Below, piece after piece: positions 1,601 through 63,945 of a DNA stretch of 64,000 nucleotides. The notes below the pieces were generated by a model, which was not told the DNA's origin, searched no databases, and saw only the letters and a list, made by a program, of their open reading frames with translations. The number at the start of each line of letters is the position of its first letter. Positions within the stretch are counted from its first letter, which is position 1. Both the position numbers and the translations under genes were made by a program. The stretch comes from Squalus acanthias. Taxonomy: Eukaryota. The stretch lies in the NCBI GenBank assembly GCA_030390025.1, contig CM059429.1, positions 118,172,001-118,236,000 of the forward strand. Reading direction: 5' to 3'.

Positions 1601-4600
1601 TAGAATGTAGTCAATTTTGGGAAGCAGACAGTTCACTAGATTTTCTGCTTATGCAGTCGTGAATGAGGAGCGCTGCCTTCAACTCACTGTTCCTGTCTAT
1701 GATGGTCTTCGAATGGAACATTATGAAGTCATATAAAGTGGAAGTAATTGCCTGAATATATAATATATATATATCCCTTTTTACAACGCTGACCATGGGT
1801 CTGTTCAATACAGTATAATTGCTCTTTAATTTCTTTATGTTGAATAATACACTAGCAGTATGAATGAGAAATAATTGAGTATGAAAATTTGCATTCCTTA
1901 AAGATTTAATTGGGAGCTTTTATTTCCTTGAGGAATAATTTGAACTGATCTGATCAAGGGATCGTGCGAGTTCTACGACAAGTCCGCCTTCTGCTGCTGC
2001 AGCCTCCACTGACAGCACTGCATAAGCTCTGCTGCGCAAGTAGAAAAAGGTGCATGTTGAAGCTTGCTGATGCACAGTCAGCCAACGTGTGCAAAAGTTT
2101 GTTTGTGCCTATTATGCTGTTATTTAAAAGCCTTCCAATGAGTGGAGGAGCCATTCTTGATCTGATCACGTAATGGTTTATTTATACATTTCCACCGCTG
2201 AAGGTTTTATGATTAGACAGCAACCTGCAGACACGGTTAATTGCACAATAGGCCATCATTCACTGGCACGGAGATCAGATTATAATGCGAACTTCCTCAG
2301 GGAAGCAGATATAGTTCCAATTAGAGGACAGATTTATTTTTATTGTGAAGGGCTACAGCACCATTATATTCAGTGCTACTGTAAAAGCTATTTGTAAACC
2401 AGACGGCAAAGACGACCACTTAATGTTGCCAAGTGGGGGAATGACAACGGTGTAAACTGGCTTTGAATTGTGTCAGTCAGTGCCCAGCTTGTGTTTTCAC
2501 TTACACAACATGAAATTGAATTGCATTTCTGGAAACAAATTTAATTATGCAAGAGAAATTATCAGCAGTTTCATATTTTTGCATCAGTTTCTGCTTTGTC
2601 TCTGTGGCCCCTTTCCCCACCACAATTGGACAAGGAATGCGTACAATAATAGCACAAAAGTAAAAATAAATAACTCTTCTGTGCTGAGTCATAGAGGTAC
2701 TGGAAAGTGCGTAGTGTTGTGTTGAACTGCTTGTCTTTTGTATCAAGTGTTACTAGTATGTAATATAAGTGTCTGCAGGATAAACACATCTTCCCAACCT
2801 TTTTGGTTGTGTATACATTTAATAAAACACTCTAGGTTTCTTTGGGGTTCTGGGGAACTTCTTTTTTCATTTCCTTTTTTTCCCTGGGCCACTTCCCACA
2901 GATGGTAGTCCCCCCTTTAATTCCTTCCACCTTGTTGCTGCTTTTTAACTTGACAATATTTGCCTGGGGTACTGCATTGTGGGAGGAGGGATGTTGAGCA
3001 CCAAGCATCTACTGTAAAAATTGCACTATTTTCAAGCTTCCGAAGTTGTCATGTATTTTCTTTGATCCTGCCCAATAATATTGCTGTTGGTGGAGTTATG
3101 TTGCTCCTATTTAACCCATCCGTTCTTTCTGTGACTTGGTTTGCTCTTATAGATCTGTATTAAAATGGTTCATGAGCACTTGTTCTTGATCTGTACATCA
3201 TACAATCATAGAAATTTACGGCACAGAAGGAGGACATTCAGCCCATCGTGTCTGTGCCAGCCGAAAAAGAGCTACCTAGCCTAATCCCACATTCCAGCTC
3301 TTGGTCCATAGCCCTATAGGTTACGGCACTTCACGTGCATATCCAAGAGCTTTTTAAATGCAATGAGGGTTTCTGCCTCAATCACCCTTTCAGGCAGTGA
3401 GTTCCAGACCCCTATTACCCTCTGGGTAAAAAAAGTTCTCTTCAACTACCCTCTAATCCTTCTACCAATTACTTTCAATCTGTGCCTCCTGGTTATTGAC
3501 CTCTCTGCTAAGGGAAATGGATCCTTCCTCTCTACTCTATCTCGGCCCCTCATAATTTTATACACCTCAATAAGGTCTCCCCTCAGCCTCCTCGGTTCCA
3601 AAGAAAATAACCCTAACCTATTCAATCTTTCCTCATAGCTAAAATTCTCCAGTCCTGGCAACATCCTCGTAAATCTCCTCTGTACCCTCTCTAGTGCAAT
3701 CACATCTTTCCTGTAATGTAGTGACCAGAACTGCACGCAGTACTCTAGCTGTGGCCTAACTAGTGTTTTATACAGTTCAAGCATGACCTCCCTGCTCTTA
3801 CATTCTATGACTCGGCTAATAAAGGAAAGTATCCCGTATGCCTTCTTAACCACCTTATCTACCTGTCCTGCTACCTTCAGGGATCTGTGGACATGCAGTC
3901 CAAGGTCCCTCTGTTCCTCTACACGTCTCAGTATCCACCTTTTATTGTGTATTCCCTTGCCTTGTTAGCCCTCCCCAAATGCATTGCCTCACACTTCTCC
4001 GGATTGAATTCCATTTCCCACTTTTCTGCCCACCTGACCAGTCCATTGATATCTTCCTGCAGTCTACAGCTTTTTCCTCACTATCAACCACACGGCCAAT
4101 TTTTGTATCATCTGCAAACTTCTTAATCATGCCCCCTACATTGAAATATTAATCATTGATATATACCACAAAAAGCAAGGGACCTAGTACTGAGCCCTGT
4201 GGAACCCCACTGGAAACAGCCTTCCAGTCACAAAAACACCCATCAACCATTACCCTTTGCTTCCTGCCACTGAGCCAATTTTGGATCCAACTTGCTACTT
4301 TCCCTTGGATCCCATGGGCTTTTACTTTTGTGACCAGTCTGCCATGTGGGACCTTATCAAAAGCCTTGCTAAAATCCATGTAGACTACCTCAAACATGCT
4401 ACCCTCATCGTCCCTCCGTTACCTCCTCAAAAAATTCAATCAAGTTAGTCGGACATGACCTTCCCTTAACAAATCCATGCTGACTGTGCCTTTCTAAATG
4501 ACGATTAATATTGTCCCTCAGCATTTTTTCCAATAATTTGCCCACTACCGAAGTTAGGCTGACTGGCCTAAACAATGGTACAACGTTAGCAGTCCTCCGG

Positions 4601-6143
4601 CACCACACTTATAGCCAGAGAGAATTGGAAAATGATGGCCAGAGCCCATGCTATTTCCTCCCTTGCTTCTCTTAACACCTGGGATACATTTTCATCTGGG
4701 TCAGCCAATTTATCGACTTTCAAAGATGCTTAACCCCTTAATATTTCCCCTCTCACTATGTTTATCTCATCTAATATTTGACACTCCTCCTTAACTACAG
4801 TGTCTGCATCGTCCCTCTCTTTTGTGAAGACAGATGTAAGGTATTCATTAAGAACCATATCCACTTCTTCCACTTCCACACACCGGTTACCTTTTTGGTC
4901 TCTAATAGGCCCTACTCTTTCTTTAGTTATCCTCTTGCTCTTTATGTATTTATAAAACAGCTTTGGGCTTTCCTTGATTTTACTTGACAATATTTTTTCA
5001 TGCCCTCTCTTTGCTTTCCTAATTTCCTTTTTCATTTCACCCCTGTACTTCCTCTACTCCTCTTGGCTTTCTGCAGTATTTATCTGACATAAGCTTCCCT
5101 TTTTCTCTTTATTCTACCCTGTATGCTCCTTGACATCCAGGGGGCTGTAGGTTTGGGAGTCCCACCCTTTTTCTTTGTGGGAATAAATTTTCTCTGAATC
5201 TTCACTCTCTCCTCCTTGAATGCCTCCCACTGCTCTGACACTGATTTACTTTCAAGTAGCTGTTTCCAGTCCACTTTTGCTAAATCACATCTCATCTTAG
5301 TAAAATTGGCCTTTCCCCACTTAAGAACTTTTATTCCTGCTTATCTTTGTCCTTTTCCATAACTACGCTAAATCTAACTGAATTATGATCACTACCACCA
5401 ATATGCTCTCCCACTGATAACCCCTTCCACCTGCCCAGCTTCATTTCCTAAAACTAAGTCCAGAACCGCCCCCTTGGGCTTGCTGCGTATTGGCTAAAAA
5501 GGTTCCCCTGAATGAATTTTAAGAATTCTGTGCTCTCTATACCTTTTACACTGATTCTATCCCAGTTAATATTAGGCTAGTTGAAATCCCCTGCTATTAC
5601 TGCCCTATTGTTTTTGAAGTTCTCAGAAATTTGCCTACATATTTGCTCTTCTGTCTCCCTCTTTGGGGGTCTATAGTACACTCTCAGCAGTGTGATTACA
5701 CCTTTTTTGTTCTTCAGTTCAACCCATATGGCCTCATTTGATGATTCTTCTAACATATCATCCCTCCTCTCAGCTGTAATTGTTTCTTTAACCAATATTG
5801 CGAGCCCCCTCCTTTTTTATCCCCCTCTCTATCTCCTCTGAAAACTCTGCAACCAGCAATGTTGAGCAGCCACTCCTGCCCTTCTTTCAGCCATGTTTCA
5901 GTAATAGCTATGATATCGTACTTCCACGTGTCTGTCTATGCTCTCAGCTCATCTGCCTTATTCACTCGACACCTTGCATTGAAGTATATACCATTAAGCA
6001 CTGCCAAACCCCTTTGTTGTCTATTTTCTAGCCTTTGTATTCTTTGCCTTCCAAATTCATTACTAATTTTCTGCCTTTCATTTCCAGCTTTGCTTCTCTC
6101 CCTTCTGAGTCTATGCAGGATCCCGTCCCCCTGACAAACTAGT

Positions 6144-7094
6144 TTAAACCCTCCCCAACAGCACTAGCAAAATCCCCGCGAGGATATTGGTCCTGGCCCT
6201 GCTAAAGTGCAAGCCGTCCGGCTTGTACAGGTCCCACCTCCCCCAGAATGGGTCTCGATGCCTCAGGAATCTAAAGCCCTCCCTCCTGCACCATCTCTCC
6301 AGCCACGCATTCATCTGCTCTATCCTCCTATTTATGTACTCACTAGCACATGACACAGGGAGTAATCCGTAGATTACTACCTTTGAGGACCTGCTTATTA
6401 ATCTCTTTCCTAGCTCACTAAAATATGCCTGCAGGACCTCATCCCTCCTTTCTACCTATGTCATTGGTACCGATATGGACCACAACCTCTTGCTGTTCAT
6501 ACTCCCCCCTCAGAACGTCCTGCAGCCGCTCAGTGACATCCTTGACCCTGGCACCAGGAGGCAACATACCATCCTGGAGTCGCATCTGTGGCCGCAGAAA
6601 TGCCTCTCTGTTCCCCTAACTATTGAAGCCCCGATCACTATTGCTTTTCTGACCTTCCTCCTTCCCCACCCTCCCCCCACCCCCCGTACAGCTGAGCCGC
6701 CCATGGTGCCATGGACTTGGCTCTGGCTGTACTCCCCAGAGGAACCATCGCCCTCACCAGTATTATACAGGTTAGAGTGCAAGATGCACTCAGGGGACTC
6801 CTGCACTAGCTGCCTGGTCCTCCTTGTCTGTCTGGTGGTCACCTATTCCCTCGCTGCCTGCAAACTCTTAAGCTGCGGAGTGACCACCTCCTGAAATGTG
6901 CTGTCCACGTAGCTTTCGGCCTCGCAGATGTACTGCAGTGACGCCAGCTGCAGCTCAAGCTCCGAAACCCGGAGCTTGAGCTCGTCCAGCTGACGACACT
7001 TCCTGCACATATGGTTGTCCAGGACACGCGAAGCATCCTGGACTTCCCACATGGCACAGGGTGTGCATTTTACGAGACTGAGGTGCCCTGCTAT
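6144..7094 (-). pseudogene. CR1 ORF1 remnant: CxxC..CxxC zinc finger, leucine zipper and SGNH/GDSL esterase
   Basis: CTPCAMWEV...CRKC followed by heptad leucines; GDS motif mutated to GAS; DGLH motif retained; broken by stops and frameshifts. Confidence 0.85.
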
Positions 7095-7126
7095 GCCTCT
7101 ATTTAGCAGACTACTAACTAAACTTC

Positions 7127-7293
7127 AGCAAAATACTGCAGATGCTGGAAATCTAAAATAAAACCAGAAAATGCTGGAAATACTCAGCAGGTCAGGCAGC
7201 ATCTGTGGAGAGAGAAACAGAGTTAACGTTTCAGGTCGATGATCCTTCGCCAGTTCTGACCTGCTGAGTATTTCCAGCATTTTCTGTTTTTAT
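7127..7293 (-). mobile_element. Short Penelope-like foldback insertion (family B pLTR + inverted partial copy) in the CR1 5' region
   Basis: 15-bp TSD TACTAACTAAACTTC at 7112-7126 and 7294-7308; inverted arms 7157-7195 / 7256-7294; degenerate hammerhead (CUGGCGA...GAAACGUU) on the minus strand. Confidence 0.9.
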
Positions 7294-7709
7294 TACTAAC
7301 TAAACTTCTTAGTTTAACCCACTGCCCTAATTAGAGAGAAAAAAGACAAAATTATTTACACAAGTGTAACAAGAACCACTGAGATACTAGACACAAAGAA
7401 CCTAAATATTAGATATCTAGATACTTAGAGTCCTCCTTTTGAGTTGGACGTGAGAAACCGCCTTCCTCCTCCTCCTCCTCCACCGAATTCCTACTATCAC
7501 CAAATTCTTCCACTCTGCTTGTGATCCACTCCAATTGCAATTCACCCAACTCTGACTCCAAGCTCTGTGCTCAAGCTCTCTTAATCTTGTCTGCTTGCAA
7601 AATATTAAAATATATAATTTTTTGAAACACAGTGGCACCCATCACTTTTGGTTTTAACCCAGAAGGAATGTGAAACCTGTGTGTGTGTGTGCGCATGGCT
7701 GTGGTGGGA

Positions 7710-15950: not shown

Positions 15951-16466
15951 AATGTGTTGTCAATGGGGAAAAAATAGTTACTAAAATATAAATCTGACCA
16001 ATGCAATGGAGCTTCAGTGAATGCTGACTGGCTTGGAATTTCATTTCTGTAATTGATTTCTCTCATTTTGTACATTTGTCTTTTCACCTCTGCCATTTAA
16101 CCATCTCCTGCTGGCTGACCTGTTGAGTGTTTCCAGCGTTTTCTGTTTTTGTTTCGAAGTCAAATAAAACACTGAACGTGAATGGCACAAATTGGGTTAA
16201 TTACAGGATTTCCTGTAAAACAGAAGAGGAACATTTAATCGCTGCTCACTTTCTTGAGAATCATCTCATGCATGCAAAGTAAGCAGCTTGGCCACATCCC
16301 TCACAGAAGGCTGAATTAAATTGATCGCATCAATTAGGAAAAATACATGGCTTTTTTTGTTTAAAAATATTGTAAGACATGTGTCTGCCTTTGGTAAAGG
16401 AAGTGACTGTTTCATTTGGGGAAGGAAGGGTGATGGAAGATTATAACCATATTTTATTAATTTGTC

Positions 16467-21370: not shown

Positions 21371-22195
21371 TATACAATGACAGCGCTGACTGATTCCATC
21401 AATAATGCATTCACTTCTACTAATTTGTACCCAGCACCATCTTAAGTTCATCAGAAGTGCAGTATTCCGAAGATTTTTCTGGCCCTTTGAGAGATAGTAT
21501 CACACTGGTGATATTTTATTGGTGGTGGAGTCAGTTTTATAGTATAATAAATAAATTGCTTCAGTTATGGTTTATCACTAAAGCTGTTTTTGAGCCGTCT
21601 CGTAATCCTGATCATTTTTACAATAGTGTACAGAATACTCAGGGGGGAAGAATGGGGGAAGATTGTTCCGTTTTTAGTTTTGTTAATCTATTTTCAGGGT
21701 TTTTAACAGTATACTTTTATTAAATAAGCCAAAGGGCATGGTTTGTACTCCAGTGGAAAAAGCTGGAAATTAATATTATGGACAGTTCTGTTTATGGTTC
21801 AGCATCATAGCTCATACTTATAAATGATAGAATACTAATAAAAGATTAGTGACGCCAGTTTGTGATCAGTAAAGGCTGGCAAGCACTAAAGGATTAAATG
21901 GCTGTTTTGGTTTTCTTTACAGTTATCTCTGAATGACTGCCTAAGTGACAGAAAGAAATGGTTATATGAAACTCTAGACCACTTTGGGGAATAGACTTTA
22001 TAAAACTCGTCAGCGAAAGCAGTGATCTGATGTTACAGAAAAGCATACCGCTCCTGATGGAATTGCCCTCAAGCTTGTATTTGTGTTGTCTGCTAGATTT
22101 AAATAGATGTGAAATATTCTCAGAAAGCAAAGAGTTTATACTGATACATGTCCTGTAGCTAGGTGTACACATGTGACTGAAATTCTAGAATCTTT

Positions 22196-22475
22196 TTTTC
22201 CTTCATTCTGCCAGTGGATTTCACACTTCTTTCAGCCTTAATCTGTCACATTAACACCACCTCTAGCCTTGCATATCTCTTAATGTCTCTTCATCTCCCC
22301 CTTTGTTCCTTTATCCCCTCCCCCTTTTCCCAGCTTTACCCTGGCCTTAAATCTATTTGATTTCCGGCTCTTCCCAGTTCTGATGAAAGGTCATCGACCT
22401 GAAACGTTAACTCTCTTTTTCTCTCTCCACGGATGTTGCCTGGCCTGCTGAGTTTTTCCAGCGTTTTCTGTTGTT
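22196..22475 (+). mobile_element. 5'-truncated Penelope-like insertion (family B pLTR)
   Basis: 14-bp TSD ATTCTAGAATCTTT at 22182-22195 and 22476-22489; contains an intact hammerhead motif; homologous to 39700-40000. Confidence 0.9.
22376..22412 (+). ncRNA. Minimal type I hammerhead ribozyme motif (PLE-type)
   Basis: AGUU-CUGAUGA-A-AGGUC-AUC-GACCU-GAAA-CG-U-U-AACU: stem I AGUU/AACU, stem II AGGUC/GACCU, palindromic stem III ACGU. Confidence 0.85.
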
Positions 22476-22861
22476 ATTCTAGAATCTTTACATCGACTGG
22501 TATTAAAACAACTGAAAAAATATATGGCAGAAAGCTATTGTCATATTGTGCTCAGTGTTCAATTTGAAATGTTTATCTTACACACAGTACCTAGTTGTTG
22601 TGCAGCAACAGATTAGTTACAGATTTAGTTAACTGATTTGTTTTCTTGTTTTAAGGGCCAGTTGTCTGGGTAGTGTAATGTGATGTCTCAATATACTAGT
22701 TAGCTGCTATTTATCAGCTAAAATGAGGAGTTTGATTTACCAGTTTGAGAATTTTATACCATTCCTTTATTAACGTGGGAGTCGTAAATCGTGTGCGTGC
22801 TATCAGAGAATGATAAAATGAAGGACTACTATTCTAGTCAGACATGACCAAACCTATGGGC

Positions 22862-30000: not shown

Positions 30001-31882
30001 ACTTCTTAAAAAATTGTTATGCTATCTTTTGCTGTTACTAAGGATATACCTCAGTGTCATGTTCTTGAAATGTCAACAAGCACCTCAGAAATTGGCACAA
30101 CAAAATTGTTGTGTATTGTGCAGAAATTGCTGCTCATGAAGTGATCTCAATGTTCTGGTTAGTAGCAAATCATTTTAGGAATATGTATGAATATATTCCA
30201 TCTCTTTTTGCTTTTCTGCTTCATGCTTTGTAACCATCAAGTCCCTTACAGCATTACAGGATCTGGCCAAAGTGGACTGGGATCAGCTACTTGTAGGAAA
30301 ATCCACATCAGAGCAGTGGGAGTCTTTCAGAAAGGAAATAGAGAGAGTACAACGGCAACATGTTCCCGTAAAGGTCAAGGGTGGGACCAACAAGCCCAGG
30401 GAACCCTGGATGTCAAGGGATATACAAGAATGGATTAGGAAAAAAAGGGAGGCTTTTGGCAGATACAAAGGACTAAAAACAGTGGAAGCCCTAGAGGAGT
30501 ATAGAAAGTGCAGGGGGGTACTTAAAAAAGAAATTAGGAGAGCGAAGAGGGGGCATGAAAAAACACTGGCGGGCAAAATAAAGGAAAATCCAAAGGTGTT
30601 TTATAAGTATATTAAGGGCAAGAGGATAACCATGGAAAGAGTAGGGCCCATTCGAGACCAAAGTGGCAATCTGTGTGTAGAGTCGGAAGATGTAGGTGAG
30701 GTTTTAAATGAATATTTTGCATCTGTATTCACTATGGAGAAGGACGATGTAGGTGTAGAAATCAGGCAGGGGGATTGTGATATACTTGAACAAATTAGTA
30801 TTGAGAGTGAGGAGGTACTAGCGGTTTTAGCGGGCTTAAAAATGGATAAATCCCCAGGCCCAGACGAGATGTATCCCAGGCTGCTGTGTGAGGCAAGGGA
30901 GGAGATTGCAGGGGCTCTGACGCAAATTTTCAGAACATCTCTGGCCACAGGGGAGGTGCCAGAGGACTGGAGAACAGCTAACATAGTACCATTATTCAAG
31001 AAGGGTAGTAGGGATAAACCAGGGAATTACAGGCCAGTGAGCCTAACATCAGTGGTAGGGAAATTATTGAAAAAAATTCTGAGGGACAGAATTAGTCTCC
31101 ACTTTTGAGAGGCAAGGATTAATCAAGGATAGTCAGCATGGCTTTGTCGGGGAGATCATGTCTAACCAATTTGATTGAATTTTTTGAGGGGGTGACTAGG
31201 TGTGTGGATGAGGGTAGTGCAGTTGAAGTGGTCTACATGGACTTCAGTAAGGCTTTTGACAAAGTCCCACATGGGAGACTGGTTAAGAAGGTAAGAGCCC
31301 ATGGGATCCAGGGCAATTTGGCACATTGGATCCAAAATTGGCTTAGTGGCAGGAGGCAGAGGGTGATGGTCGAAGGTTGTTTTTGTGACTGGAAGCCTGT
31401 GTCCAGTGGTGTACCGCAGGGATCGGTGCTGGGTCCTTTGCTGTTTGTAGTGTACATTAATGATTTAGATATGAATGTAGGAGGTGTGATCAGTAAGTTC
31501 GCAGATGACACGAAAATTGGTGGAGTGGTAAATAGCGAGGAGGGAAGCCTCAGGTTACAGGACGATATAGACGGGTTGGTTAGATGGGCAGAACAGTGGC
31601 AAATGGAACTTAACCCTGAAAAGTGTGAGGTGATGCATTTTGGGAGGACTAACAAGGCAAGGGAATATACAATGAATTGTAGGACCCTAGGAAGGACAGA
31701 GGATCAGAGGGACCTTAGTGTGCATGTACATAGATCACTGAAGGCAGCAGGACAGGTAGATAAGGTGGTTGTAAAGGCATATGGGATACTTGCCTTCATT
31801 AGCCGAGGCATAGAATATAAAAGCAGGGAGGTTATGATGGAGCTGTACAAAACGCTAGTTAGGCCACAGCTGGAATACTGTG

Positions 31883-32097
31883 ATGTGGAGATGCCGGTGT
31901 TGGACTGGGGTGGACAAATGTGAGAAGTCGCACAACACCAGGTTATAGTCCAACAGTTTTATTTGAAATCACAAGCTTTCGGAGCGCTGCTCCTTCGTCA
32001 GGTGAAGTGAAGAGATGTATATCGGCACAGCATATATATGCTGTGCCGATATACATCTCTTCACTTCACCTGACGAAGGAGCAGCGCTCCGAAAGCT
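31883..32097 (-). mobile_element. Penelope-like foldback mini-insertion (family A) with perfect 128-bp palindrome
   Basis: TSD TGGAATACTGTG (31871-31882, 32098-32109); palindrome 31972-32099 centred in CATATATATG; the ORF track shows the same peptide on both strands. Confidence 0.93.
31969..32005 (-). ncRNA. Minimal type I hammerhead ribozyme motif (PLE-type)
   Basis: Minus strand UCAC-CUGACGA-A-GGAGC-AGC-GCUCC-GAAA-GC-U-U-GUGA: stem I UCAC/GUGA, stem II GGAGC/GCUCC, palindromic AGCU stem III. Confidence 0.85.
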
Positions 32098-34235
32098 TGG
32101 AATACTGTGTGCAGTTCTGGTCGCCACACTATAGGAGGGATGTGATTGCATTGGAGAGGGTGCAGAGGAGATTCACCAGGATGTTACCTGGACTGGAGCG
32201 CTTCAGCTATGAAGAGAGACTGGACAGGCTGGGGTTGTTTTCCTTAGAGCAGAGAAGGCTGAGGGGGGACCTGATTGAGGTATACAAAATTATGAGGGGC
32301 ATAGATAGGGTAGATAGAAAGGAACTTTTCCCCTTAGTAGAGAGGTCAATAACCAGGGGGCATAGTTTCAAGGTAAGGGGCAGGAGGTTTAGAGGGGATT
32401 TGAGGAAAAACTTTTTCACCCAGAGGGTGGTTGGAATCTGGAACTCACTGCCTGAAAGAGTGGTAGAGGCAGGAACCCTCACAACATTCAAGAAGCATTT
32501 AGATGAGCACTTGAAACGCCATTGCATACAAGGCTACGGACCAAGTGCTGGAAAATGGGATTAGAATAGACAGGGCTTGATGGCCGGCGCGGACACGATG
32601 AGCCGAAGGGCCTTTTTCTGTGCTGTATAACTCTATGACTAAAAATCAGAATGTGGACTGAGGAGAATCTTTGGCTACAAACTTGTGTACTTCTATTGCC
32701 TGAAACAATGCTTTGTCGCATCAATGCACTTTGCCGCTGATTCATTTTAAATTAAGAGGTTGAGTGGCATGGTTTGTTAGCACACAGGAACCAGGGTTTG
32801 AAAGACTCCGTTGTTTCAGCTAGCTATAACAATCTTGTATGATATGAGTTTCTAGTAGATACAGGTCCACAGCAAAACACAACCTACAATTCAACACATA
32901 TTGCACTGAATTGGAAATCTCATTCTGTGACAACAAGTATGACTACAGTATTATTGGAATGGAAAAGTTCATACTGATGTGGGAAAACTTTTTCTGAGGT
33001 TGAAGCACAGGGAGCTTACTTTGTATGTGGCTATACTACACCTAATCTGGGAGTGCTTAATGCTGAAAATGGGTGCCCAAAATGGAAAAATGTCACCTTA
33101 AATGAATTTTTTTTGGAAGCATTTTCCTTTGTGCTTTTTAAAATTAATTTGAACCGGTTAGTATTTGACCGAATGTTCAGAGCTGGCACATATTTTTCAG
33201 TTTCACATACTAGGTTCTTAGCCTGAAATGGAACTGTCTAGCCACATGCTTCTTACCCGTCTTGTCTTGTTTTCCTTCCCGCAACCCCCGCCCCCCCCCC
33301 CCGCCCCCCGGCAGATGTTGGGATTGAGGCAAACAGAAGGAGATTTAACATATTTGTGCATCTCAGCTGTTAATTTCTAAAGTGGTACTTGCATATATTA
33401 TTATATCAGCAGAAAATGTTAATAAAATCTCTACTTTAGTTATACATATTACTATTGGGGGCCTGAGTATTAAAAGCTTCACTTATTTACATATTTAGAT
33501 AAGATTTGTTGATGGCGAATGAAACTTAACCATTACCTCGACATCAGGTTGAGGGGGTGGGGGAGCAGAACTCTTGATATTCATCCCTTTATTTTCGAAG
33601 AGTGACTTCAATTTAAAGTGTAAATTGATCTGTAGGAAACAGTGAGTGTAACACAATGTTAGAAGAGCTGTTTACTTAGTCATGATGTATTGTGGTATTT
33701 ACAATGGGAGCTGTATTCTATTCTGCTTAAATAGTCAGACATGCTCATACCTTCCAGTGGAATTATGTTGCATTAGTAATATATATTCTCAGATTATTAG
33801 GTAGTGACTCTCTCAATTTAATTGCTTTCCCCTCTCCATAAATGGTGAAAATGTAGAACTGGTTTCAGCCCAGGCCAGTCTTGCCTTCTGACCTGAATCT
33901 GTACTGTTGTTTAGTGGCAATGTAATTGTCATCTACACACATGGCAACCGAGAAAATTGGCAAAAGCTGACATAAAAAAAACCTGCCCATATTATATGCA
34001 TTATGACATATGAAAACAAGTCATTATACTGGAAATGCAATGGGAAAAAGCTTGGAGGCCTGGAATTTAATCTGTGGGTGCAACCCAGAAGATAGACGCG
34101 AAAATGTGCCCATTCTGCCAATGTCAATTTACACTCAAATTTCCTGCAAATCTCATAAAAATATGCCTGAACGTAAAATGGATGGAAATCAGCGTAAACA
34201 ATCGGGGCCCAACAGAAGTGCCAAACTTACACGAT

Positions 34236-38727: not shown

Positions 38728-38804
38728 TGAAACGTTAACTCTGTTTCTCTCTTCACAGATGCTGCCTGACCTGAGTATTTCTAGCATTTTCTGTTTTTAT
38801 TTCA
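38728..38804 (+). mobile_element. Penelope family B pLTR fragment
   Basis: TGAAACGTTAACTCTGTTTCTCTCTTCACAGATGCTGCCTGACCTG..; hammerhead 5' half missing. Confidence 0.8.
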
Positions 38805-39443: not shown

Positions 39444-40035
39444 GTGACCCCGAGCTTCCGGTCGCTTGTCATTTTAATTCACCGCTCCACGCCCACTCAG
39501 ACCTCACCGTCCTCGGCTTCTTGTATTGTTCCACGGAAGCTCAGCGTGAGCTCGAGGAACAGCACCTCATCTTCCGATTAGGCACTTTACAGCCTTCCGG
39601 ACTCTCTATCGAGTTCAACAATTTCAGATCATAACTTCGTCCCCACCATATTTTATCCACACTTTTGGTTTGTGCCTTTTCCCCTTTTTTTTTCTCCCCC
39701 ACGGCAGCTGTCTTTCATTCTGCCAGCATTTCATACTTCACACTTCTGAGCCATCTTTTGTTTCTTAACCTGTCCTATTACCATCTCGCCTTGAGCATCT
39801 CTTGATGTCTCTACTTATCACAGACCTCCCCTTTTGTTCTTTTATTCCTTCCCCCAGCCTCCCACTTGCTTTTTTTATCTGTTTCATTTCCTGCTTTTTT
39901 CTCCGTTCTGACGAAGGGTCTTCGACCTGAAACGTTAACTCTGTTTCTCTCTCCACGGATGTTGCCTGGCCTGCTGAGTTTTTCCAGCGTTTTCTGTTGT
40001 TTCAATTTTCCAGCATCCGCAGTATTTTGCTATTG
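39444..40035 (+). mobile_element. 5'-truncated Penelope-like element: GIY-YIG endonuclease C-terminus, 3'UTR, hammerhead, tail
   Basis: PVACHFNSPLH.HSDLTVLG...RELEEQHLIFRLGTLQPSGLSIEFNNF* (to 39634) is the typical PLE endonuclease end; 9-bp TSD ACTCCAAGG at 39435-39443 and 40036-40044. Confidence 0.93.
39905..39939 (+). ncRNA. Minimal type I hammerhead ribozyme motif (PLE-type)
   Basis: GUU-CUGACGA-A-GGGUC-UUC-GACCU-GAAA-CG-U-U-AAC. Confidence 0.8.
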
Positions 40036-40475
40036 ACTCCAAGGAAGTACGTTGCTTCCTGTGGTGCTGGGAACCGTGGAATTGTCACCAATGAAATTCA
40101 GCTTTTTTGGGTTGAATGATGTAATGTTAAGTTGCTGTCCTGAAATTTTGCCTGATCACTTGTCGTCAGTCGCTTCCTTTCAGGAGATTAAATACATTTG
40201 ATAAAGTTTATTGTTGGGATTGTGTAATTATGTTGTAATAAGGCAATTTTCATCATAAATATGGACTAGGAATTTATAATGGGAAAATTTGACATAAGGT
40301 GCCAGCCGGTGTGAGATTCTTAATGTATTTCTGAGATTGTACAACTGGGCAGAACAATTTGTAAATTGTGCAGCTTTATTAATCCATTCTCTGTGAAGGA
40401 GGATTGAAAGTTTTGGTCCAAATGAGATTGTGTTACTCATCTGCTGTGGGCTATAGTATGTAGGTGGAAATCTTT

Positions 40476-49430: not shown

Positions 49431-51301
49431 CAACAAAGCAGGGAAAGAAATGCTGAAGGATGGGCACTGTTGGGATCAACACACCAATGTTATTTGTGAG
49501 CTGATGCGTTGCTCTATTTCTCAGCTCGAGAAAGTAAAGCTGCCCGGACTGTTTGACAGGTGGAATATTTTAGTTCTGGCGTGTGTTAATGCATGTTCTG
49601 TTTGTTTATGTTGAGCAGAGACGCCGTTTTAAATGTAGTTTATACCTGGCACGGGCTCACTGGTCTCCCGGGAGATTACTCACTTTCAAAGTATTTGGTC
49701 AGAGCTGAGCAGATGGCTGAGTGGCTGCATCATTTTCAATTTGATCAGTGATGAGTTCTGTCATATGCTGACTGCTGTCAATTTATCCATTAGTGTATAA
49801 CTATTACTGTGTTAGCTGACGGAGACAAGTGGACTAAGTGGCTGATAATGGACTTTTCATTGATCAGTTTTGATTAAAATCTGCTTAGACTACTCTTTTT
49901 TCTTACTTTTGAGATGTATGTTTTTGTTGCCCTTCAGGCCAGGGAATGCAGTAGTGTTAGTTGAAAATGCAATGCTTGAGCTGCCCATGTGCTGTCTCAA
50001 GCAGTGTGGTGTTTACTGTAAGATCACCCAGGGTTGATATTCCTGTCTTTTTTCTTACCTTTTCATGGCAGGATGTTCATGTATGTAACTTTTACTGCCC
50101 AGTAGCTTTTTGGGAAAGATGTCTGTGAAACCATTTGATGCCAATTAAAGCTGTCCAGAGATGCGACTGAATGTGTGATCCAAACTTAATTGGCACAAAA
50201 ACACAAACCCATTCGGATCACCCACCAGAGGTTAAAAACAGCTGTCAAGTTTGTTTTATCAACATTTGTTTTGTTCTCTGCACAAACAAGAATGGGTTAC
50301 TAATTAATATTGACATAAGAATTGCGATCTTTGCCGGAGTTCCTTCTTTTGTTGGGTGATATTGATACTGATTTTGACAGAATTCTGGGGTTGTGCAGCT
50401 TTGCAACAGGGGTCACACTTTGCTTCCCTTGGGGAGGGAGGTTGGGCGTTTACAATTTAATTTGTTCCTGAGGGGGAATGGGTTGGTTAAGATACTCTTT
50501 TATGAGACGGGATCATAACTCTTTCGCGCACCCCTCCCCCCCGCCCCCCACACTTCCATACCCCAAAGAGCTTTTGCTCATAAAAAGGACATTTGTGTTT
50601 CTACAAACTCAAGTAAAAGCCAAACTTAATTTACACTCGTATGAAAATAATCATGTAAATATCTTTAAGAAGAACCAAGTATAGAATTTTGCCTCGAAAT
50701 ACTGCCTTTAATCTGTTATCTGTGATCTGGCATCTACAGAACTAATTTCCGATAGATACTACATTGCGATGCTTTACTACATTCCTGCACTATATAAATG
50801 CAAGCTGTTGTACAGTAGCGTTCAATAAATGTACAGATTCAGTCTTTAACCATACTATTCATTAACTGAATTAACAGTTGCAAAATTTAAGCTGTGCTTT
50901 GGTGCAAAAATGGTGGATAATAGGCAGCAGATTGATCTAGTGAGTTTTTAAATTCATTCTTGGGCTGTGGCTGTCGCAGGCAAGGCCCATCCCTGGTTGG
51001 TGTTGTGGAGGTGATGGTGGGCCACTGGCAGTCCGTGTGGTGAACGTGCTCCCTCAATTCTGTTGGGCGGTGAAGTCAGTGTAACTTCAGGCAAGCTCTG
51101 GAATTCTCTTAAACTGTAAACAGATCTGTGTGAAGGTGTCCATTTCACTGGTAGTTTGCCAGTAATATATGGAAATGCAAGTTTGTTCTTTTAATGATTT
51201 TTACCCCTTGAAAAATGAAAAGATTTTAGTACTAGAATTAAACCAACATAATTAGATTTTTTTGTTTATTTGAAGGTATCTGCGTAATAAGAAACAGGCT
51301 G

Positions 51302-51700
51302 CAATCTTTCTCCTCCACGTCCTCCTCCTCCATGCCCTCCTCCTCCTCCACACCCCCTCCTCCTCCTCCACGCCCCAATCTTTCTCCTCCACGTCCTCCT
51401 CCTCCACGCCCTCCTCCTCCTCCTCCTTCATGCTCCACGCCCTCCTCCTCCTCCTCCTCTTCCTCCACCCCCTCCTCCTCCTCCACCCCCTCCACCCGCC
51501 TCCACGTCCTCCTCCTCCACGCCCCCTCCTCCTCCTCCACGCCCCCTCCTCCTCCTCCACGCCCCCCTCCTCCTCCTCCACGCCCCCTCCTCCTCCTCCA
51601 CGCCCCCCTCCTCCTCCTTCTCCACGCCATTCTTCTCATCTTTCTCTTCCTGCTCCTCGTCTTCCTTCTTTCTCCTCCTCCTCATCTTTGTTTTCTCCTC
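51302..51700. repeat. C/T-rich low-complexity minisatellite (CTCCTCCACGCCCC / (CCT)n)
   Basis: Directly visible; causes the spurious Pro/Glu/Gly/Arg-rich ORFs. Confidence 0.95.
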
Positions 51701-51901
51701 ATAGAATCATAGAAATTTACAGCACAGAAGGAGGCCTGATTGCAATTTCTGCATCGACCCTCTCTTTTGTTAAAACAGACACAAAGTATTCATTAAGAAC
51801 CATACCCATGTCTTCCGCCCCCACACACAGGTTACCTTTATGGTCCCTAATATGCCCTACTCTTACTTTAGTTATCCTCTTGCTCTTAATGTATTTATAA
51901 A
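51700..51901 (-). mobile_element. CR1 3' tail fused directly to an internal ORF2 piece
   Basis: CATAGAATCATAGAAATTTACAGCACAGAAGGAGGCC joined to sequence matching 4803-4955. Confidence 0.85.
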
Positions 51902-62060: not shown

Positions 62061-62582
62061 GGGCTTTGCTTTCTGGTTTTCTTACTTGATCCTTGTTTGA
62101 TAGGACACTACAATAATGCATCCTTTTTAAACTCTGAATTCATTCAAGTACTGATCATCATGTTTTAAATACAAGGAGTCTTTTCCATTGGTTGATAAAT
62201 GATGTGCTAATTACATTTCTAGTCTTGTTATCCCAGTTAGAATGGCTCCCATTTTTAGATGATTGTTCTCTCATTTAGTGGGACTGTTATTGCTCTCACG
62301 AGATAACTCATTTTACAAAGTAGGTCACCACCAAACGAATGGGACATTTTTAAAGATGTGTTAGGGCAAGACAAATTTTATTGATTTCAGATTGGAGAGC
62401 CAATCTGTTATTCAATTTTATAATCGATCCGCCTTACATAATATATAACTTGCTGTTCTATCAATTCACTCTTTCATTTTTAATGAATATATAGAACAAG
62501 ATTTGTAACTCAGCTGGACTCTTTAAAATGCAGAGATCATAAAAGCTTCAAAGCTTGGTCCATCACTGTTGTTGGTAGAGAG

Positions 62583-62805
62583 CATGATGTGGAGATGCCG
62601 GTGTTGGACTGGGGTGGACAAAATTGAGAGGTCGCACAACACCAGGTTATAGTCCAACAGTTTTATTTGAAATCACAAGCTTTCGGAGCTATCGATTGCT
62701 CCTTCCTCAGACTTCACCTGAGGAAGGAGCAATCGATAGCTCCGAAAGCTTGTGATTTCAAATAAAACTGTTGGACTATAACCTGGTGTTGTGCGACCTC
62801 TCAAA
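62583..62805. mobile_element. Penelope-like foldback mini-insertion (family A), 87-bp perfect arms with 7-nt spacer
   Basis: 12-bp TSD GTTGGTAGAGAG (62571-62582, 62806-62817); arms 62624-62710 / 62718-62804; same outer end TGATGTGGAGATGCCGG as the 31.9-kb copy. Confidence 0.93.
62714..62755 (+). ncRNA. Minimal type I hammerhead ribozyme motif (PLE-type)
   Basis: UCAC-CUGAGGA-A-GGAGC-AAUCGAUA-GCUCC-GAAA-GC-U-U-GUGA. Confidence 0.85.
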
Positions 62806-63766
62806 GTTGGTAGAGAGAGCAGAGTTAGAATAAATAAGAGCAACTCGTGGCCAATGGAAGTCCAGTCACTGAATGGTTACAGCACAGAAGGAGGCCATTT
62901 GGCCTGTTGAGCCTGTGGGAGAAGCTTGGGAGAAGTGACTTTAAAACTGGGCAAAGTAGAAATGGGACAGATTGGATGGAGCTTTGAAGCCACCATTTCA
63001 CTTCAATGCTTAAAAATTGAAAAAACTTCAGTGCTTCAGAACTGGTTGAGTGTTCCCAGTTATCTGCCATTTTTTTCATTTGGGATGTGGCTTAAGCCAT
63101 GGATTATGGAACAGACTTAGAAGCCAGGTAAGTGGGTTTTCACATCACAAACAAGGCAAGAGAAGTAGATGGGAGTTTATAAACTTTGCAAAAGAAAATT
63201 CTAACATTCACTTGTATGTTAATATTTTGCCATCATGGGATTTATGTTCCCCTATAGCTGATTGCTGGAGCATTTCAAAGTAATTGGTCATTCACCTTTC
63301 TCCAAAAGGTTATAAACACTGTAAAAGTGGTATTGGGATTGGCAAAATAAGACCTGATTTATAACAGGAGTTATTCTCATTAATAACCAACCAATCAAAT
63401 GCATGAGTAGCAAACCCAAAACAATATCCTGGAGAGGAGCAAATTTGGATTTGTTTAGCCCAAGCTGAAAAACATTTGAGTTGTGATTTTCCAGTTCTTC
63501 TTTAAACTAAAGATGCCTCTCTGCCCATGTGCATAGAAGGAAAGAAAGGCAAAATGTCACTTTGCATATGTATTTACTGTCCTCCTAACTATTTTGCCTT
63601 CCATCACCTTCATATGCATGTACCGTTGTTTTCAAGGGGAGGAAGGCTAAGTATGCATTTGATCTCCATCAGTCTAGTGGGTGTGACTGAGCTCTTTGTC
63701 CAGTGCTGGGTATACATTGTGCTCTCTGATGGTGTATGGTGAAGGATAGGTATGTATTTGATCCTT

Positions 63767-63945
63767 AAATAAAAACAGAAAATGTTAGAAATACGCAGCT
63801 GATCAGTTAGCATCTGTAAGATTAAAAAAAGACAGATAATGGGGAAGGTCACACACCCATCATATCTGTCTTCTCTCTTTGCAGCTGCTGTATATTTCCA
63901 GCATTCCTGTTTGTTGTTTTAGATTGCAAGCATTTGTAGTTTTAT
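63767..63945. mobile_element. Old foldback of Penelope family B pLTR
   Basis: AAATAAAAACAGAAAATGTTAGAAATAC... followed by inverted ...TATTTCCAGCATTCCTGTTT..; hammerhead decayed. Confidence 0.6.

Follow-up and report, generated by a model that had tools for sequence, protein, structure and literature searches.

The 215-bp insert that interrupts a LINE in this 64,000-nucleotide stretch of Squalus acanthias DNA (the window) is probably a normal, if very short, insertion left by an endonuclease-bearing Penelope-like element. Its arms were probably joined at the element's native TATATA, and its short arm was probably attached through local similarity to the target rather than through a ribozyme-made end. 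The insert, hereafter copy 1, is a dead stub, without a reading frame of its own and with one intact hammerhead motif. Published work on Penelope elements already describes inverted arms, tails on one side, palindromes at junctions and pairs of hammerheads on opposite strands. The locus comprises the following features.

About 30260..32640, plus strand: host LINE, 5'-truncated, its reverse transcriptase frame broken by the insert (Pfam RVT_1, E 5e-25; frame analysis; other LINE copies uninterrupted at 31882).
31871..31882, plus strand: left target-site duplication; its last 2 nt double as the tail end (tail terminus 31881 in read contigs).
31881..31920, minus strand: tail of about 40 nt, on the minus-strand long arm only (read-contig termini 31881 and about 31921; the short arm of copy 2 stops at the equivalent of 31918-31921).
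31881..32035, minus strand (sense): long arm, the 3' end of a Penelope-like terminal repeat (91% identity to copy 2 at 62585-62710; thousands of related contigs per run).
31969..32005, minus strand: complete minimal type I hammerhead motif (descriptor scan, fold, compensatory pairing relative to the second family of the window).
32005..32010, minus strand: initiator-like TCACTT with its A at 32008, a likely transcription start (5' ends of other copies cluster there; the copy 2 arm starts at the equivalent of 32008).
32032..32038, unstranded: native TATA-like run, with the self-complementary TATATA (32033-32038) centred on the axis 32035/32036 (native departure after 32038 in four runs; word scan).
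32036..32099, plus strand: the shorter arm, inverted and 62-64 bp long, which mirrors 31972-32035 exactly.
32066..32098, plus strand: incomplete hammerhead core that stops at the predicted cut, with a 1-bp stem I; predicted inactive.
32098..32109, plus strand: right target-site duplication; its first 2 nt double as the last 2 nt of the arm.

The original prediction described a 215-bp insert between target-site duplications and a perfect, loop-free palindrome of 128 bp, and both descriptions were borne out. The insert occupies 31883-32097 between two identical 12-bp duplications (31871-31882 and 32098-32109), and 31972-32099 is identical to its own reverse complement (64+64 bp, spacer 0); the longest half-palindrome after shuffling the window (n=20) was 7-9 bp. 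The palindrome closes with a TG that also opens the right duplication, and the tail end of the element likewise has TG in common with the left duplication. Owing to these overlaps, the true duplication is 8-12 bp long, and the plus arm ends at -1, 0 or +1 relative to the predicted cut. A young age had also been proposed, and this is supported by arms that are 100% identical and by a single majority difference from the family over about 158 bp. The host LINE, which we take to belong to the CR1 clade, contains one frame change besides the insert, near 31106-31123, and picks up in register beyond it. Contigs that cross the insertion site uninterrupted are other LINE copies and are no sign of an empty allele.

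Both arms were found by descriptor scan and folding to contain CUGACGA, an extra A, a 5-bp stem II and GAAA-GC-UU, with predicted cuts at 31973/31972 on the minus strand and 32098/32099 on the plus strand. Stem I measures 4 bp in the minus copy versus 1 bp in the plus copy. The minus copy has every feature of a minimal type I hammerhead (CUGANGA and GAAA core, extra base after A9, G10.1-C11.1, palindromic 15.2-16.2, stem I of 4-5 bp), and the plus copy falls short in stem I. Across 6 rows, which amount essentially to one comparison between two families, 8 of 11 hammerhead pairs were changed on both sides. The complete minus-strand hammerhead and the plus copy stopping within 1 nt of its predicted cleavage site were therefore correctly recognized at the outset. 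The accompanying picture of two back-to-back ribozymes is not supported: each arm carries a core, but only one core is complete, and the hairpin would silence it. Two active ribozymes are not expected, given the 1-bp stem I of the plus core and the predicted arm-to-arm pairing. RNA read through the insert from either strand is predicted to form a 62-bp hairpin between the arms, which would bury both cores. When two short copies were cofolded, the lowest-energy form was an inter-copy stem II duplex rather than an active dimer. Rfam returned no match at the gathering score across the whole window and 18 matches at E<=10, none to a hammerhead family; microRNA and snoRNA matches were sub-threshold and reflect the perfect hairpin only.

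In the accessible part of Cervera and de la Pena 2014 (PMC4209133), minimal hammerheads share with copy 1 the extra base between positions 9 and 10.1, G10.1-C11.1, the palindromic 15.2-16.2 and a 4-bp stem I, whereas stem II is 5 bp in copy 1 and 7-8 bp in Schistosoma. The same part of that paper documents opposite-strand hammerhead pairs 100-700 bp apart in metazoan Penelope-like elements; in contrast, the cores of copy 1 are just 68 nt apart, and one is without stem I.

The family is very abundant, and its termini were located in read contigs. Contigs from four runs were compared with 31790-32055, which covers the left junction and the centre, and 15,494, 12,594, 35,477 and 2,395 contigs per run matched the LINE flank and element together. 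One run, X5, is a second sample of the same organism and was about 55% read. Joints were called at a 90% likeness setting with short sides, and repeats can produce such joints. Terminus 31881 was represented by 137, 114, 343 and 16 contigs in the four runs, with mixed flanks, and terminus 31921 by 35 contigs in X5; six of the nine flank-to-element joints listed end at 31916-31923 and one at 31881. These two termini fit the two reverse transcription start sites that define the tail in vitro (Frangieh 2024, PMC11167929). Joints that return to 31881 or 31921 could represent partial tandems, and no full element was observed. Two further inverted stubs lie in the window.

62571..62817, unstranded: copy 2, of the same family, with a 12-bp duplication, a tail arm, a tail-less inverted arm and a 7-nt asymmetric centre.
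7112..7308, unstranded: copy 3, of the second hammerhead family, with a 15-bp duplication, a tail arm and a 39-nt tail-less inverted arm.

Copies 1-3 are each a 5'-truncated insertion with an adjoining inverted copy, and four opposite-strand joints occur among those listed from the contigs. The tail is confined to one end, being about 40 nt in copy 2 and 30 nt in copy 3; in copy 2 the duplication is exactly 12 bp, and the element adds 2 more tail bases. Duplications of 12, 12, 15 and 14 bp were found at four of the five hammerhead-family stubs examined in the window, and none was found at the fifth. A Penelope-type origin, as first suggested, is thus supported by the hammerhead type, the one-sided tail, the inverted arm and the 12-15-bp duplications. 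Pfam analysis of 73 of the 79 window frames of at least 92 aa (six low-complexity frames at 51241-51897 being omitted) identified no Penelope-type reverse transcriptase, GIY-YIG or other Penelope protein; the matches were two RVT_1 and one sub-threshold GDSL-like, and none of these frames links a reverse transcriptase or GIY-YIG gene to the family. An exact-pattern scan of metagenome and viral contigs yielded 0 loci.

That the short arm of copy 1 stops at the predicted ribozyme cut is probably due to chance, although a random arm end would fall within 1 nt of that cut only about 3 times in 100 by a rough estimate. The target resembles the element at the arm end, with TG and a nearby AGCT in common, so joining at this point has a ribozyme-free reason. 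This microhomology account is no less coincidental than an arm ending at the cut: the same TG is available at 10 positions along the arm, and the AGCT match requires a 1-nt slip. Priming of one arm at a ribozyme-generated RNA end had been put forward. As a rule this is not supported, because other end points are found in two of the window's three inverted stubs and among the read termini with the best support. In copies 2 and 3, the short arm continues 52-68 nt beyond the cut and stops at the tail-less terminus. In the window, one of three short arms ends at the cut, and in the contigs no loose end at 31971-31974 was present among the 24 of 663 rows listed. Because the listings cover 24 of 663 loose ends and 15 of 22 joints, a minor peak at the cut may exist. 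Three listed rows touch the cut region, namely two deletions with ends at 31970 and 31972 (one contig from X3, another of the runs, and one from X5, with 2-3 nt of microhomology) and one X5 joint leaving at 31972.

These rows, together with an arm end at -1 to +1 of the cut, lend some credence to an account that we nevertheless consider unlikely, in which the right target end primed synthesis of the short arm on hammerhead-cut RNA, starting at the 3' end of that RNA. The cDNAs would then have annealed at TATATA, and the cut would have served as a minor third priming site in addition to the tail and tail-less sites. The last target base could pair with the terminal U of the cut RNA, and copy 2 requires two separate copying events. 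The Anolis enzyme, a predicted dimer, extends both target strands and primes weakly from template 3' ends (PMC11167929). However, the same work found uncut RNA to be the dominant substrate, cleavage to be dispensable and not one read to end at the cut, and minimal hammerheads are reported in the literature not to cleave as monomers in vitro. The account also applies to one of three short arms in the window, and the target microhomology offers another reason for the same end. In the contigs, 5' ends cluster at 32005-32012, upstream of the hammerhead core, which argues for uncut RNA as the template. A literature search whose coverage left out most subscription journals and supplements returned no tabulation of inverted-arm ends against the hammerhead cut and no description of TATA-centred palindromes.

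Far less probable is that the short arm once extended to the tail-less end and lost part of its length to a later deletion, perhaps during cruciform resolution, with the breakpoint falling on the TG of the duplication. Long perfect palindromes are prone to deletion, TG provides microhomology, and other copies have deletion breakpoints at 31970 and 31972. Nevertheless, such a deletion must have left the entire 12-bp duplication and the palindrome centre intact, and cruciform-driven loss mostly takes out the centre.

The absence of a spacer is explained by the element itself. In all four runs the native element matches the window up to 32038 and then departs from it, so TATATA is native and lies on the palindrome axis; because this self-complementary word sits exactly at the centre, the spacer is zero. 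The centre of copy 2 and all four inversion centres listed for other copies are asymmetric, and the zero spacer is therefore site-specific. TATATA lies 30 nt upstream of the initiator-like A (32008), and the gap from the TATA-like run to the TCACT motif is 21 nt. Near the initiator, the read contigs listed show joints at 32006, 32008 and 32012 and loose ends at 32005-32006. The accessible part of Arkhipova 2013 (PMC3846280) describes palindromes where inverted copies meet, as well as a TCACT initiator-like motif separated by 20 bp from a TATA box. The Drosophila Penelope promoter has been described in the literature as TATA-less, so the promoter reading is not general. Contigs of X3 continue across the centre as far as about +15, their summed depth falling from 52.8 to 3.2, an extent that fits a real fold-back, since 31-letter words would reach about that far. 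Contigs of a second organism also extend past the palindrome centre. In X5, about 55% read, and X17, by guess an RNA run, there was no cover past the centre, a hole that proves nothing.

Because centres and arm lengths vary among copies, the stubs are truncation products rather than a replicating unit, and the special miniature product originally envisaged is not supported. The same variation, seen among copy 1, copy 2 and the four inversion joints listed, makes it highly implausible that the palindrome is copied as a unit, in the manner of a preformed non-autonomous mini-element (retrozyme- or MITE-like). Such an element would be non-coding and abundant and would carry a hammerhead motif, as here, and Penelope terminal repeats have been proposed in the literature as the source of animal retrozymes. 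However, depth is about 53 past the centre versus tens of thousands just before it, and the tandem array that forms part of the retrozyme definition is absent: copies 1 and 2 are each a single inverted insertion without head-to-tail hammerhead units. In the accessible part of Li et al. 2026 (bioRxiv 10.64898/2026.07.22.740005), animal non-LTR retrozymes resemble copy 1 in being short, non-coding, Penelope-derived and equipped with a type I hammerhead, but they form head-to-tail tandem arrays, whereas copy 1 is a single inverted insertion of a structure variable among copies. An assembly or read fold-back artefact is just as hard to credit: none of the contigs listed spans 31790-32055, a stretch that ends before the right junction, and X3 is possibly the sample that was assembled, but the duplication around the insert is exact, the LINE returns in register, sister stubs are built alike and X3 contigs run past the centre.

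For the ordinary Penelope-like insertion that we favour, the following course of events may be proposed. An element protein acting in trans would nick the target strands about 12 nt apart, as the duplication suggests. The left target end would then prime reverse transcription at the tail end of uncut RNA through the 2-nt microhomology at the junction, by analogy with Frangieh 2024. The cDNA would pass the hammerhead and the likely start site and, 30 nt farther on, enter the TATA-like run; given this extent, a longer transcript would have supplied the template, in the form of its downstream terminal repeat. The cDNA end may then fold back at TATATA or anneal there to a second cDNA, so that only a spacer-free palindrome would result. 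The mirror strand would finally be joined to the right target overhang after 62-64 nt, probably at the common TG and nearby AGCT. The cDNA fold-back of the original prediction is supported as a plausible route, and for copy 1 fold-back and two-cDNA joining cannot be told apart. Copy 2 did not arise by simple cDNA fold-back, because each of its arms holds sequence absent from the other.

Inverted, 5'-truncated Penelope insertions in the accessible parts of Arkhipova et al. 2013 (PMC3846280) and Craig et al. 2021 (PMC8557442) share several traits with copy 1: terminal-repeat arms inverted head to head, a tail of 30-40 nt confined to one end, duplications of 8-15 bp, an inverted-junction palindrome and, about 20 nt from a TCACT initiator-like motif, a TATA-like run. 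Copy 1 differs from them in that it includes no reading frame, its palindrome is the whole 64-bp arm without a spacer (18 and 38 bp in the rotifer cases), and its short arm does not continue to the tail-less end but stops at the hammerhead cut. Poseidon of Anolis carolinensis (Frangieh et al. 2024, PMC11167929) is alike in that its tail is set by two termini, uncut RNA is used and both target strands are extended, which would yield inverted products; its reading frame begins inside the hammerhead, whereas copy 1 shows no such frame. The main text of that paper contains no analysis of inverted products or TATA-centred joins.

Copy 1 alone matters little, being one among very many stubs of a known kind. 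The stub family, however, is a mechanistic fossil. It records the two termini at which reverse transcription begins, the point at which it runs off, which lies close to the likely transcription start and upstream of the ribozyme and hence on uncut RNA, and how the arms are joined, at a self-complementary word or asymmetrically. It is conceivable, if doubtful, that hammerhead-cut RNA ends constitute a minor third Penelope priming site, with stubs as footprints of in vivo cleavage, and that the TATA box of the terminal repeat is a recurrent joining hot spot. If so, ribozyme cleavage in vivo, unreported for animal Penelope elements in the literature surveyed, would show as genomic footprints, and TATA joining would yield symmetric two-way TATA-initiator units and 62-bp perfect hairpins. 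Because this genome has so many young copies, the role of the hammerhead in animal Penelope elements is directly testable here by arm-end counts. If ends did pile up at the cut, this would be evidence for a ribozyme acting during insertion.

The perfect 128-bp palindrome with a 0-nt spacer at 31972–32099 was confirmed, palindrome halves in the shuffled window control (n = 20) reaching only 7–9 bp. It lies in a 215-bp insert (31883–32097, copy 1; long arm minus, short inverted arm plus) for which the original prediction had claimed a target site duplication, and sequence comparison within the window found an exact 12-bp duplication on both sides (31871–31882 and 32098–32109). The palindrome runs 2 nt into the right duplication, and the tail end of the element has 2 nt in common with the left one. 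The arms and duplications of copy 1 carry no mismatch, and in read contigs copy 1 differs once from its family majority in ~158 bp (at 31919) and the host LINE once from its own in ~90 bp; insert and LINE, both proposed as young, are young by these measures. We take the LINE clade to be CR1.

Features in the window (first family, copies 1 and 2; second family, copy 3 and relatives)
~30260–32640: host LINE, 5'-truncated, with a reverse transcriptase (RT) domain match and one frame change besides the insert
62571–62817: copy 2, first family, 91% identity to copy 1, exact 12-bp duplication, tail arm and inverted arm
7112–7308: copy 3, second family, 15-bp duplication, 39-nt inverted arm
22182–22489: non-inverted stub, second family, 14-bp duplication
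~39700–40040: non-inverted stub, second family, no duplication found
38728–38802, 16109–16153 and 63760–63839: other positions of the second hammerhead family

Further features lie in or beside LINE sequence. At 31816–31820, an A+T-rich stretch of the host LINE, nine listed joints tie other LINE copies to element ends, which suggests that Penelope elements have inserted several times, independently, close to a single site of the LINE, although with sides of 21–27 letters they may be a repeat artefact. Directly upstream of the LINE at 3206–5286 is a sub-threshold GDSL-like match (6147–6455, minus strand, E 7e-06), perhaps left over from the esterase of a LINE ORF1. A low-complexity pyrimidine-rich tract (51241–51900) adjoins a 150-bp piece common to two LINE copies (4803–4956, 30600–30767).

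In earlier reports, inverted 5'-truncated copies with a one-sided 30–40-nt tail are typical (PMC8557442; PMC8969392), junction palindromes are common in Penelope-like insertions (PMC3846280) and opposite-strand hammerhead pairs are already known (PMC4209133). Copy 1 behaves like such an inverted, 5'-truncated insertion in every structural respect examined, including the inverted arm, one-sided tail and minimal hammerhead traits. The proposed Penelope-type origin was supported, and by its structure copy 1 is likely a Penelope-like element. Compared with animal retrozymes, as defined in bioRxiv 10.64898/2026.07.22.740005, it lacks the tandem arrangement, and a retrozyme identity was rejected.

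The minus arm reads, in order, stem I of 4 bp, CUGACGA, an extra A, stem II of 5 bp and GAAA-GC-UU, followed by the predicted cleavage site (the cut, 31973/31972). Cervera and de la Pena name four sequence traits by which the minimal hammerheads of Penelope-like elements in animals are known (PMC4209133), and the minus arm shows all four. Between the first and second families, 8 of 11 stem pairs changed on both sides, and 91% of cells pair in register against 20–41% when slid, figures that amount in effect to one comparison between two families. Among the differences listed within the hammerhead in read contigs, insertions fall in loop II (31985–31988); loop II of copy 2 is 5 nt longer, with the stem retained. 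An Rfam search of the window did not recognise the hammerhead. The plus copy ends, as originally noted, within 1 nt of its own predicted cut (−1 to +1). As it keeps only 1 bp of stem I, it is predicted to be inactive. Read-through RNA is predicted to fold into a long hairpin (−157 and −150 kcal/mol for the two strands) that would bury both cores on either strand. Of the two back-to-back hammerheads originally proposed, the complete minus motif stands; given the truncated plus copy and the predicted hairpin, the locus holds one intact motif rather than two working ribozymes.

Four of 21 read-contig runs were compared with 31790–32055 at 90% likeness. Organism A supplied X3 and X5, two different samples, and also X17, guessed to be RNA; organism B supplied X6. 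Each run gave 2,395 to 35,477 matching contigs, flank and element counted together. In all four runs, the native element tracks the window up to 32038 and then diverges (32 contigs in X3, 25 in X5, at least one piece in X6, 8 in X17). TATATA at 32033–32038, a self-complementary word whose centre is the axis 32035|32036, is therefore native to the element. Whether one cDNA end folds back on this word or two cDNA ends anneal at it, the product can only be a palindrome without spacer. The inversion centres of other copies are asymmetric in all four cases listed. At 32042–32050 the summed depth amounts to 52.8 (X3) and 24.6 (X6), dropping further out to 3.2 and 0, as expected for a fold-back read in 31-letter words; X3 is possibly the sample that was assembled, and none of the listed pieces displays the fold-back directly. 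The organism B signal past the centre may, tentatively, come from an independent event at this word, because its dominant subfamily differs from copy 1 at 31922 and 31930.

The A (32008) of an initiator-like TCACTT is preceded, 30 nt upstream, by a TATA-like run. Arkhipova et al. describe a nearly identical arrangement for a Penelope repeat of a rotifer (PMC3846280); the Drosophila Penelope promoter is TATA-less (PMC2377424). The run and initiator-like site are likely a promoter. Three of four listed inversion joints begin at 32006–32012 and one further joint lies at 32008; X6 adds loose ends of 18 contigs with mixed long flanks at 32005 and of 53 contigs at 32006, the latter perhaps reflecting another subfamily. 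From these positions we infer a template that begins 7 nt ahead of the core, and so is uncut RNA, with RT often running off its 5' end. This agrees with Frangieh et al. on the Anolis Poseidon element, where ribozyme cutting is unneeded, zero RNA reads end at the cut, two internal RT start sites define the tail and both target strands are extended (PMC11167929). On the plus strand the palindrome repeats this layout in mirror image (32036–32099, with the A at 32063), which predicts a promoter working both ways that would read into the 3' part of the LINE.

Ends elsewhere favour the tail (~40 nt, 31881–31920) and the tail-less terminus (~31921). Loose ends with mixed flanks occur at 31881 (137, 114, 343 and 16 contigs in the four runs) and 31921 (35 contigs, X5); among nine listed flank-to-element joints, six end at 31916–31923 and the other three, singly, at 31881, 31901 and 31940. 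The second family, older-looking, has 14–15-bp duplications, an optional 30-nt tail and stems fully compensatory to those of the first family. The inverted arms of copies 2 and 3 end at their own tail-less termini, ~52 and ~68 nt beyond the cut. Copy 2 has arms identical over 87 bp, and where they meet the tail-less arm contributes 7 additional bases. Since each arm holds private sequence, simple fold-back of one cDNA is ruled out, and two copying events are needed. Its short arm spans exactly the initiator-like A (32008 equivalent) to the tail-less end, like run-off cDNA from an RNA 5' end.

The short arm of copy 1 is atypical, ending at neither tail nor tail-less terminus. The target shares TG at the arm end, with AGCT just beyond the duplication after a 1-nt slip; within the arm, TG alone is available at 10 positions. 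The arm end thus coincides both with the predicted cut and with the target similarity, each by rough estimate a few-percent event. Fold-back synthesis followed by microhomology joining to the target would give this end, and because the atypical end suits that route, we consider the whole account probable. Priming on a hammerhead-cut RNA end, as originally suggested, comes second and is unlikely: the copy 1 arm does end within 1 nt of the cut, but this link is one case, two of the three short arms in the window end at the tail-less terminus, and none of the 24 listed loose-end rows (of 663) falls at 31971–31974. Three listed rows in the cut region count against the preferred account: two deletions with 2–3 nt microhomology, reaching to 31970 and to 31972 (a single contig in each of X3 and X5), and an X5 joint departing at 31972. 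There may still be a minor peak at the cut, since the tables used cover 15 of 22 joints and 12 of 35 rows of a further joint table, and short-sided joints at 90% likeness may come from repeats. Later trimming, a unit mini-element and artefact jointly take the small remainder of probability. Exact-pattern scans of metagenome and viral contigs gave 0 loci, and a literature search found, among the papers retrieved, no tabulation of arm ends against the hammerhead cut.

The striking symmetry of the palindrome appears to have a simple cause in the sequence itself, and copy 1 is a real, young, well-formed stub of an already known kind.
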